A stretch of DNA of 64,000 nt, taken from the NCBI RefSeq assembly GCF_003334815.1, contig NZ_QOWO01000006.1; one strand, given 5' to 3'. Under the pieces are notes generated by a model. The model ran no database searches. It worked only from the letters and a program-made list of their open reading frames with translations, and was not told the DNA's origin. Source of the stretch: Escherichia coli (GTDB taxonomy: Bacteria > Pseudomonadota > Gammaproteobacteria > Enterobacterales > Enterobacteriaceae). The position numbers were made by a program, and so were the translations under genes. Positions 38,993 through 40,727 of the stretch are shown one piece after another. Positions within the stretch are counted from its first letter, which is position 1, and each line of letters starts with the position of its first letter.

Positions 38993-39000
38993 ACTAATAT

Positions 39001-39100
<100 letters not shown>

Positions 39101-39133: not shown

Positions 39134-39910
39134 ATGTCCGAAACAAAAAACGAACTTGAAGACCTGCTGGAAAAAGCAGCAACTGAACCGGCGCACCGCC
39201 CGGCCTTTTTCCGTACTCTACTGGAATCCACCGTCTGGGTGCCTGGTACGGCGGCGCAGGGCGAGGCTGTGGTTGAAGATAGCGCGCTTGATTTACAGCA
39301 CTGGGAAAAAGAAGACGGCACCAGCGTCATTCCTTTTTTCACCTCGTTAGAAGCACTTCAACAGGCGGTTGAAGACGAACAGGCATTTGTCGTAATGCCC
39401 GTTCGCACGCTGTTTGAGATGACACTTGGCGAAACGCTCTTCCTTAATGCCAAACTGCCAACCGGTAAAGAATTTATGCCGCGTGAAATCAGTTTGTTGA
39501 TTGGTGAAGAGGGAAATCCGCTGAGCAGCCAGGAAATCCTGGAAGGCGGTGAATCGCTGATATTATCGGAAGTCGCAGAGCCGCCAGCACAAATGATTGA
39601 TTCACTCACCACCTTATTTAAAACCATTAAGCCGGTGAAGCGTGCTTTTATTTGTTCAATTAAAGAGAACGAAGAGGCACAGCCTAATTTACTTATTGGC
39701 ATTGAAGCCGATGGTGATATCGAAGAAATTATTCAGGCGACGGGAAGTGTAGCGACCGATACATTACCTGGCGATGAACCAATCGATATTTGTCAGGTGA
39801 AAAAAGGGGAAAAAGGAATTAGCCACTTTATTACCGAACATATTGCGCCATTCTATGAACGTCGCTGGGGTGGTTTTTTGCGTGACTTTAAACAGAATCG
39901 GATAATCTAA
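39134..39910 (+). CDS. sseB: SseB (enhancer of serine sensitivity) protein, about 258 aa
   Basis: Track ORF 39125..39910; start MSETKNELEDLLEKAA (alternative start 39125). Confidence 0.88.
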   Translation: MSETKNELEDLLEKAATEPAHRPAFFRTLLESTVWVPGTAAQGEAVVEDSALDLQHWEKEDGTSVIPFFTSLEALQQAVEDEQAFVVMPVRTLFEMTLGETLFLNAKLPTGKEFMPREISLLIGEEGNPLSSQEILEGGESLILSEVAEPPAQMIDSLTTLFKTIKPVKRAFICSIKENEEAQPNLLIGIEADGDIEEIIQATGSVATDTLPGDEPIDICQVKKGEKGISHFITEHIAPFYERRWGGFLRDFKQNRII

Positions 39911-39911
39911 A

Positions 39912-40215
39912 ATATGCCGCCCAAAGGGCGGCATTCGGGCTTACTTGCTGCTCTGAAGGTTGTTAACCACCAGTAAATTGTCGCCGGAGAGACTCCGGTT
40001 ATTATTTACCTCGGTTAACAGCGCACCAGAAACAATAAGTACGATACAAAAGCACCGTATCTTCATTGTGCGGTCCATGCGAAGACCGCATCACGACAGC
40101 ACCACTGGCGATATTGCCGCGATAGCAAGCGCTGTGAAACACCTGCATTTACGGCCACGGAACATCCTTTCCTAAAGCCAGCGCCCGTTTGCGAGACGGC
40201 GGAAAGGGCCGCAGT
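39912..40215 (-). ncRNA. ryfA: candidate RyfA-like transcript (about 300 nt), possibly a small-protein mRNA
   Basis: Minus-strand TATTAT -10-like hexamer at 40218-40223; about 300 nt downstream the minus-strand terminator hairpin at 39913-39937; contains a 24-codon ORF (40091-40165) with AGGAAAGG RBS; boundaries and strand are inferred, not proven. Confidence 0.35.
39913..39937. terminator. hairpin at sseB 3' end; T-tract is on the minus-strand side (better terminator for a minus-strand transcript)
   Basis: TGCCGCCC-AAA-GGGCGGCA; flanked by AAAATA on the + side so the minus-strand reading gives hairpin + UAUUUU. Confidence 0.55.
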
Positions 40216-40388
40216 GGATAATACACTAACAGAACAATAATAACTCTCTTTTGCTTGACAAAAAGAGAGTTACTGGCGAGTATTGTCTCCGCTGAGACGC
40301 GCTTGCATTACTACGGTAATACAACCTGCTGGAAAGGCCGCGAACCGGACCAGCAACAAAAAACCGCCTGATTTTGGCGGTTTTTTGT
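40198..40388 (+). repeat. paralogous unit 1: leader + TTGACA-centred palindrome + conserved block + intrinsic terminator (candidate ~100-nt sRNA gene on + strand)
   Basis: About 80% identical to 40520-40711; TTGACA at 40255-40260 inside perfect 11-bp inverted repeat (40242-40271); terminator AAAAAACCGCC-TGATTTT-GGCGGTTTTTT at 40357-40390. Confidence 0.6.
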
Positions 40389-40519
40389 TTTTTAAAGGAA
40401 AGTGAATTTACATGTTTAAGTAATATCTTTTACCGGTTAGAATTTTTAATTTTGAGCAGGATTTGTTTATATTTGTCTGAATTCGGACTAATAAGCCAGG
40501 TTATTTTATTACCGAACAC

Positions 40520-40711
40520 GGCGGAAAGGGCCGGTGTCGATAATACGCTAAATAAACAATAATTACTCTCTTTTGCTTGACAAAAAGAGAGTTACTGGTG
40601 AGTATTGTTTTGCTGTGAAGCACCTGCGTTGCTCATGTAACACAAGTCAACCTGCTGGAAAGGCCGCGAACCAGACTAGCAATAAAAAACCGCCAAATTC
40701 GGCGGTTTTTT
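40520..40711 (+). repeat. paralogous unit 2: same architecture as unit 1; its terminator also serves convergent sseA
   Basis: TTGACA at 40577-40582 inside 10-bp inverted repeat (40565-40592); conserved CTGCTGGAAAGGCCGCGAACC block; terminator AAAAAACCGCC-AAATTC-GGCGGTTTTTT at 40683-40713, 15 bp from sseA stop. Confidence 0.6.
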
Positions 40712-40727
40712 ATTGCCTGTAAAATAC

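Follow-up and report, generated by a model that had tools for sequence, protein, structure and literature searches.

A palindrome between the divergent timP and timR genes of Escherichia coli is probably a lineage-specific symmetry within their core promoters

Genes and RNAs of the timP/timR locus

The stretch of Escherichia coli DNA analyzed in this study (contig NZ_QOWO01000006.1 of assembly GCF_003334815.1; 64,000 nucleotides, hereafter referred to as the window) carries, between the sseB and sseA genes, the timP/timR (ryfA/ryfB) type I toxin-antitoxin locus. Our subject was a perfect palindrome located between the divergently transcribed genes of this locus, which the initial annotation, made from the sequence alone, had considered a possible operator for a dimeric regulator or a cruciform/stem element. 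The gene order, sseB–timP(ryfA)–timR–sseA, is of the E. coli K-12 type. The interval (831 bp) has counterparts of 100% identity in E. coli chromosomes, and on identical DNA RefSeq annotates timP (“small toxic inner membrane protein”), sseB and sseA. All of the 5,426 complete E. coli genomes contained a related sequence, which includes timP and is bordered by sseB and sseA.

The mRNA of the toxin is the ryfA RNA, encoded on the minus strand at 39909-40212 and identified both by Rfam model RF00126 (314.9 bits, against a threshold of 80) and by the K-12 annotation. It contains an open reading frame (ORF) of 41 amino acids (39941-40066, minus strand) that matches proteins named TimP and corresponds to the small toxic inner-membrane protein of the K-12 annotation. 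TimP has been described as a small membrane toxin, and TimR as a divergent, non-overlapping small RNA (sRNA) of approx. 100 nt, whose 5′ end pairs with the 5′ untranslated region (UTR) of timP (PMC7667032; PMC5333039). The TimR target site within this UTR was assigned to 40131-40149 (minus strand) from direct-repeat family D3 and duplex prediction.

In the K-12 reference, ryfA spans 2,653,855-2,654,158 and timR (b4811) spans 2,653,356-2,653,455 on the opposite strand. When mapped to the window, these ends place the ryfA +1 position at 40212, reading leftwards, and the annotated antitoxin sRNA at 40612-40711 (plus strand), reading rightwards. This sRNA belongs to the second of two related units. 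Unit 1 contains a second gene for a TimR/RyfB-like sRNA (40291-40390, plus strand), with an intact TTGACA-17-GAGTAT promoter and a terminator; by homology with unit 2 its start would be located near 40291, and the K-12 reference lists only timR b4811. The TimR of unit 1 (TimR-1) ends at a bidirectional terminator (40355-40389) with a perfect 14-bp stem bordered by an A-tract and a T-tract. Another bidirectional terminator of this kind (40679-40716; perfect 16-bp stem) serves both the TimR of unit 2 (TimR-2, plus strand) and sseA (minus strand). The IS128 RNA (40344-40552, minus strand), recognized by Rfam model RF00125 (262 bits) and by the D1 repeat, starts from a unit-2 promoter of the type described below as P1.

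Geometry and chance expectation of the palindrome

The element was first described as AACTCTCTTTT-GCTTGACA-AAAAGAGAGTT at 40242-40271, with 11-bp arms, an 8-bp spacer containing a consensus −35 hexamer, and a copy in unit 2 at 40565-40592 with 10-bp arms. All of these features were borne out, and a repeat finder extended the perfect arms by one base, to 12 bp. The left arm, TAACTCTCTTTT, occupies 40241-40252, the spacer, GCTTGACA, 40253-40260, and the right arm, AAAAGAGAGTTA, 40261-40272; the TTGACA hexamer is placed at 40255-40260. In unit 2 the arms (40565-40574 and 40583-40592) are perfect over 10 bp and enclose the same GCTTGACA centre, with TTGACA at 40577-40582, and the 30-mer at this position is mismatched at one outermost base.

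We counted the perfect inverted repeats (arms ≥11 bp, loops 3-20 nt) in the window and in 40 dinucleotide-preserving shuffles of it. The window had eight, whereas the shuffles averaged 0.225 and never had more than 1. The other seven are G+C-rich and include the two TimR terminators, which leaves the palindrome as the sole A+T-rich repeat that is not a terminator. The palindrome is real, and on the scale of the 64-kb window a chance origin is unlikely. At the rate found in the shuffles, however, chance alone would give about 15 repeats of this kind in a 4.6-Mb genome.

The palindrome lies within the core promoters of timR and timP

TTGACA-17-GAGTAT is a sigma-70-type promoter located ahead of TimR, with a −35 hexamer that matches the consensus at six of six positions. 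In unit 1, the −10 hexamer is at 40278-40283 (plus strand). This promoter was compared among 32 orthologous regions originating from E. coli alleles, E. albertii, a cryptic Escherichia clade, Citrobacter, Superficieibacter, Rahnella, Yersinia, Erwinia and 12 metagenomic Enterobacterales contigs. In all 32, TTGAC(A/T)-17-xAxxAT was invariant in both sequence and spacing, with −10 hexamers such as GAGTAT, GACTAT, CAATAT or CAAAAT. In unit 2, where the −10 hexamer occupies 40600-40605 (plus strand), the annotated timR 5′ end (2,653,455, equivalent to 40612) is 7 nt further downstream. The invariance among the orthologues and the position of the unit-2 5′ end together identify TTGACA as the genuine −35 hexamer of TimR, as had been proposed, and the right arm of the palindrome as the first 12 nt of the 17-nt spacer of this promoter.

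On the minus strand, the hexamer TATTAT (40218-40223) fits as the −10 of the timP promoter (P1), being correctly placed for the annotated ryfA/timP 5′ end at 40212. A strong −10-like hexamer is conserved at timP in all of the genera, and in nearly all of the sequences it has the form TAxxxT. The timP ATG of E. coli is 144 nt from a conserved GGCCC at the 5′ end, and P1 therefore also agrees with the Salmonella timP ORF, which has been reported to begin at +145.

A promoter scan detected, in both units, another minus-strand promoter, TTGTCA-16-TATTGT (P2). In unit 1 its −35 (40256-40261, minus strand) overlaps the TimR −35 by 5 bp, its −10 is at 40234-40239 (minus strand), and its predicted start is near 40227. 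It is a mirror image of the TimR promoter, directed towards timP and located upstream of the conserved TATTAT, and its spacer is the left arm of the palindrome. The same hexamers have been listed as the constitutive ryfA promoter, under an RpoD-holoenzyme peak of genomic SELEX in the sseA-ryfA spacer (Shimada 2014, PMC3946193), and an RpoS-holoenzyme peak has been reported for this spacer as well (PMC5493296). In nearly all of the Escherichia and Citrobacter-like sequences, with the exception of Superficieibacter, a −10-like hexamer (AACTAT, AATTAT, GACTAT or TATTGT) is found exactly 16 bp from the reverse −35; this accounts for the AATAGT motif that is conserved ahead of the TimR −35.

TATTGT was considered as the main −10 of timP and rejected, as both the annotated 5′ end and the conservation of the −10 across genera favour TATTAT at 40223-40218. 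P2 remains a prediction, since its expected start does not coincide with the annotated 5′ end at 40212, which fits TATTAT. Given the 5-bp overlap of the two −35 hexamers, a polymerase bound in one orientation should exclude a polymerase bound in the other.

Relative to the two starts, the palindrome extends from about −19 to −50 of TimR-1 and from −29 to −60 of ryfA; its left arm alone covers approx. −39 to −50 in the TimR-1 promoter and −29 to −40 as counted from the ryfA/timP +1. The annotated 5′ ends of ryfA and timR are therefore both outside the palindrome, which is untranscribed promoter DNA and forms the core of the divergent timP (ryfA) and timR promoters. Its placement where plus- and minus-strand promoters would diverge, as the initial annotation had it, is thus correct.

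The two units originate from a recent duplication

Both copies of the palindrome are contained in a 91-nt direct repeat (90% identical, 322-nt spacing), which is followed by a 64-nt repeated block, and they are not, therefore, independent of each other. Only some of the genomes have the second unit (5,062 places, 3,454 genomes). The presence of the palindrome in both units had been put forward as an argument for function. This argument is weak, because agreement between the products of a recent duplication, limited to some strains, says little about function.

The K-12-type locus was found to be a mosaic of two timPR alleles. The timP target site can pair with TimR of unit 2 (40612-40630) through 17 Watson-Crick and 2 G-U pairs over 19 nt (predicted energy −45.3 kcal/mol), while its match to the adjacent sRNA of unit 1 (40291-40309) is 74%, with a predicted duplex of −36.3 kcal/mol. 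Strains with a single unit carry cognate pairs (strain 61 of type A and strain 1105 of type B; these alleles are described below).

IS128 seems to derive from a second copy of timP, of which it would be the 5′ remnant, with the same −10 and the first approx. 35 nt of ryfA. Unrelated A+T-rich DNA is joined to this remnant, and IS128 ends at the bidirectional terminator of the unit-1 TimR.

The inverted repeat is not conserved in other genera

A permissive scan of a genome collection with a ryfA-derived pattern matched mostly unrelated G+C-rich genomes and gave at least 14 usable Enterobacterales loci among the matches listed. A search with the TimP protein produced matches only in Escherichia and Shigella, plus two short partial fragments labelled Klebsiella, and no named Salmonella locus; the Salmonella- and Citrobacter-like sequences were taken from a scan of metagenomes.

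We searched the region from the timP −10 to the TimR start of the orthologues for inverted repeats, with and without gaps, and compared the results with shuffled sequences. A repeat around the −35 that exceeded the shuffles was present only in the main E. coli alleles (score 9-12, a level reached by no more than 2.5% of shuffles), and none of the 24 orthologues outside the E. coli A and B alleles had a significant inverted repeat flanking the −35. The results for 22 of these 24 resembled those for the shuffles. In the remaining two, both metagenomic loci with nominal p≤0.05, the repeats were of unrelated sequence and located elsewhere in the region. Conservation of structure without conservation of sequence, i.e. 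other palindromes at the same place in other genera, was also considered and rejected after both types of search. Moreover, the spacing from the timP 5′ end to TTGAC is not constant among the genera (43 to 67 bp), which means that the region lacks the fixed geometry that a shared ancestral operator would need.

In one metagenome contig (L135), an 11-nt direct repeat, TTTTGTATAGT, flanks the TimR −35 at the place where E. coli has the inverted repeat. This suggests that local duplications arise at this promoter in a lineage-specific manner and without a common pattern.

Variation and history of the palindrome within Escherichia

A census of the 5,426 E. coli genomes with a 42-mer revealed an exact match in 3,178 of them, one or two mismatches in 1,450, three or four in 241, and no match in 557. 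The commonest variant, G40253A, concerns a loop position and was found in all four of the single-mismatch genomes sampled. A second main allele (B, as distinct from A), counted separately with a 34-mer of its own, has TTTC at the inner end of the left arm, which reduces the arms to 9 bp; it was detected in 399 genomes, including those of strains CFT073 and Nissle. Strains 22a and B20105 each carry one A>G change in the right arm. Only one-sided arm changes were seen within E. coli, and none that was compensated, in what was a small sample. The initial annotation had advised a search for other genomic copies of the element: none was found beyond this locus, the 34-mer and 42-mer occurring one to three times per genome, always in the chromosome and never in plasmids.

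The A and B alleles have an identical TimR core promoter, including its non-palindromic ACTGGC, and differ in the left arm and in both flanks. Conservation therefore tracks the promoter and not the dyad.

An older allele, TTACTCTGTTTATTATC-TTGACA-TAGCCAGGCATAAAAGAGAGTATT, retains the same −35, spacing and −10 without the palindrome, and is carried by E. albertii, by clade E1V33 and by 167 E. coli genomes. In this allele the block AAAAGAGAG abuts the −10, as it does in several Citrobacter-like sequences (AAAAGGGAGTATT, AAAAGAGAGTATT), and a similar complement, CTCTGTTT, is already present upstream. In the main E. coli alleles, AAAAGAGAG is found immediately after the −35. The displacement of this block from the −10 side to a position behind the −35 indicates that the palindrome is the derived state. 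Inversion, deletion combined with insertion, and template switching were each tried as the origin of the palindrome, and none of them gave the exact sequence.

Origin and possible roles of the palindrome

The palindrome is probably a lineage-specific symmetry within the timR and timP core promoters that arose as a by-product of local rearrangement. The complementarity of the arms would then be an accident of sequence history. Its likely cause is a local rearrangement or template switch that may have set the ancestral AAAAGAGAG beside the −35, opposite a pre-existing CTCT.TTT. The symmetry may persist because E. coli strains are little diverged and the right arm lies within a constrained core promoter. 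The sole mechanistic consequence that seems plausible is linked with the 5-bp overlap of the −35 hexamers, through which polymerase bound at the TimR promoter would exclude polymerase from the predicted mirror promoter.

Several points weigh against this interpretation. A perfect repeat of this size is statistically unusual, with 0.225 expected per window, and the palindrome is kept, perfect or nearly so, in about 85% of the 5,426 E. coli genomes. The quasi-palindrome that existed beforehand reaches only marginal significance (p about 0.06-0.1), and we could not retrace exactly which mutations led from the ancestral allele to the palindrome. That the A and B alleles, otherwise diverged, have the same right arm and core promoter could reflect selection beyond that on the spacer. 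Finally, we infer the use of P2 and of the TimR-1 start.

Of the roles suggested originally, that of an operator is not supported: the arms are absent from the orthologues outside E. coli and from the older Escherichia allele, the changes in them are one-sided, and the element is unique. We consider it unlikely that the palindrome is instead an E. coli-specific operator, at which a dimeric or tetrameric protein binds the 12-8-12 dyad, occludes the shared −35 and controls TimR and/or the mirror timP promoter. A perfect dyad is centred on the overlapping −35 hexamers, it is kept in most E. coli genomes, its right arm is the same in diverged alleles, and the literature provides neither a condition inducing TimP nor any account of transcriptional regulation of timR, all of which is in favour of such a protein. 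However, of the properties of an operator, only dyad symmetry is seen, as the half-sites are not conserved in orthologues of other genera or in the older allele, in spite of the conservation of the promoter, and variation in the arms is not compensated. An element confined to one locus in the genomes examined also defines no regulon. With 12-bp arms whose centres are 20 bp apart, the dyad would be an unusual operator for a simple dimer. We recognized in it no motif of a known E. coli transcription factor (LexA, Fur, FNR, CpxR and NarL were considered and did not fit; no database test was made), nor, in our own reading, is a CRP-like site evident in it. One preprint gives lower ryfA levels in a crp mutant. 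The timP/timR/ryfA literature that we checked makes no mention of a palindrome or inverted repeat, and describes no transcriptional regulator of the timP/timR promoter region; nor did we find in it a report of a protein that binds the element specifically. A role in promoter competition, in which the mirror-image sigma-70 promoters of TimR and P2-timP share one −35 and the transcription of toxin and antitoxin is anticorrelated in single cells, is improbable. TTGACA and TTGTCA do overlap by 5 bp, the mirror −10 is found at 16 bp in nearly all of the Escherichia/Citrobacter-like clade, sigma-70 holoenzyme binds the sseA-ryfA spacer without other factors (PMC3946193), and competition of polymerases at symmetric promoters has been demonstrated, mainly with one direction strengthened (PMC12825309). 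The same study reported the basal activity of natural bidirectional promoters to be too low, though, and the annotated ryfA 5′ end, as well as the Salmonella start deduced from the position of the ORF, agree with P1, not with P2. For the hexamers to overlap, the spacers do not have to be complementary, and the same overlap occurs in clades that lack the palindrome; competition therefore does not explain the arms. It is also doubtful that the E. coli dyad acts as a transcriptional toggle, with mutually exclusive polymerase orientations (TimR or P2-timP) or with a putative E. coli-specific dimeric protein that shuts off both. If true, this would add a transcriptional layer to a system that has so far been studied only at the RNA level.

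The two remaining explanations concern secondary structure. Since sseA and IS128 are transcribed towards the palindrome, read-through RNA from either of them could fold there (a stem followed by UUAUUAUUGUU) and stop before the toxin gene, so that the minus-strand hairpin would act as a weak terminator or insulator. A scan flagged terminator-like minus-strand sites in both copies, and the minus-strand RNA has predicted energies of −17.7 and −11.8 kcal/mol (z about −4.2); for either strand, the values are −16 to −18 kcal/mol in unit 1 and −12 to −14 kcal/mol in unit 2 (z about −3 to −4). This role is nevertheless very unlikely. The stem has only three G-C pairs among 10-14, the U-tract is interrupted (tail ATTGTTCTGT or AATTATTGTT), and the strong bidirectional terminators described above already separate the palindrome from sseA and IS128; furthermore, both annotated RNAs start outside the palindrome, neither the other genera nor the older allele have such a hairpin, and covariation is absent. 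The other element proposed initially, a cruciform or stem, fares no better, as the arms are absent outside the main E. coli alleles and the changes in them are one-sided and uncompensated. In its most specific form, a sensor of supercoiling whose extrusion would place the −35 in a single-stranded loop and turn TimR off, we regard it as extremely unlikely, even with perfect A+T-rich arms of 12 bp and predicted DNA hairpins of about −9.5 and −9.1 kcal/mol per strand. Short arms and an 8-nt unpaired centre make the extrusion of a cruciform costly, the arms of unit 2 and of the B allele are only 9-10 bp long, and the structure is not conserved.

With the palindrome read as a lineage-specific symmetry, the gain is mainly one of annotation: it marks the core promoters of timP and timR, and is not a new regulatory element. 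For work on timPR and RyfA, it is of relevance that the promoter architecture differs among E. coli lineages and between E. coli and Salmonella, that K-12 has two TimR-type genes with identical core promoters and different seed sequences, and that what has been published as a “ryfA promoter” mirrors the promoter of TimR.

Other arrangements of the locus

Several of the sequences compared differ in the organization of the locus. The timP target and the TimR seed homologous to it form a direct repeat, and in E. marmotae (L129, positions 800-870) a deletion between the two removed both promoters and the 5′ end of timP, and joined a promoterless timP ORF to the body of TimR. In two E. albertii sequences (L131 and L132), the hairpin of the TimR terminator is missing approx. 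160-185 nt after the GGCGGAAAGGGCC anchor (…CAGCAATAAAAAACTTATTTCACTGG…), which would leave TimR without a terminator and sseA without the shared one. E. coli FDAARGOS_1285 (L128) has two complete timP genes with a partial sseB duplicate between them, an arrangement that differs from the K-12 duplication. In E. coli 06-00048 (L004, positions 972-1520), an element of the IS3 family (ISEcB1) is located just beyond timP, in place of the promoter/TimR region. Elsewhere in the window, a REP-like element at 39000-39031 resembles the first 32 positions of the Rfam model naRNA4/CssrE; the match does not reach the gathering score, and the edge of the stretch searched cuts it off.

Comparison with known systems

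The locus and one of its promoters are already in the literature. The timP/timR system of Salmonella, Shigella and E. coli (Andresen 2020, PMC7667032; Fris 2017, PMC5333039) is the same locus, situated between sseB and sseA. These papers deal with post-transcriptional control and do not describe the architecture of the intergenic promoters or the palindrome; in comparison with the published system, the K-12-type arrangement contains an extra, truncated unit.

A back-to-back arrangement of toxin mRNA and antitoxin sRNA, which pair via a short direct repeat in the DNA, is likewise found in tisB/istR-1, shoB/ohsC, zorO/orzO and dinQ/agrB, and the TimR copies gave weak, sub-threshold matches to the Rfam models of ohsC, AgrB and OrzO-P. 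tisB and dinQ are under LexA control via defined SOS boxes, whereas no equivalent conserved operator was found here in the timP/timR promoter region.

The ryfA promoter of Shimada (PMC3946193) consists of the same minus-strand hexamers as P2 (40261-40256 and 40239-40234), with a −35 that is the centre of the palindrome in reverse. The assignment is a sequence prediction under a peak of low resolution; it does not fit the annotated ryfA 5′ end, and it takes no account of the TimR promoter, which is stronger, faces the other way and may be responsible for the SELEX peak.

There is also an architectural parallel with the prokaryotic bidirectional promoters of Warman, Grainger and colleagues (PMC12825309), in which pseudo-symmetric DNA likewise accommodates polymerase in either of two orientations, and these may compete. 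In those promoters the −10 is the common element, and their starts are typically 18 bp apart (10 and 23 bp are also common). At timP/timR, in contrast, it is the −35 that is shared, and the starts are separated by approx. 64 bp (P2) or 79 bp (P1). If the symmetry did affect the choice of promoter, the locus would be a small example of divergent promoters that share a −35.

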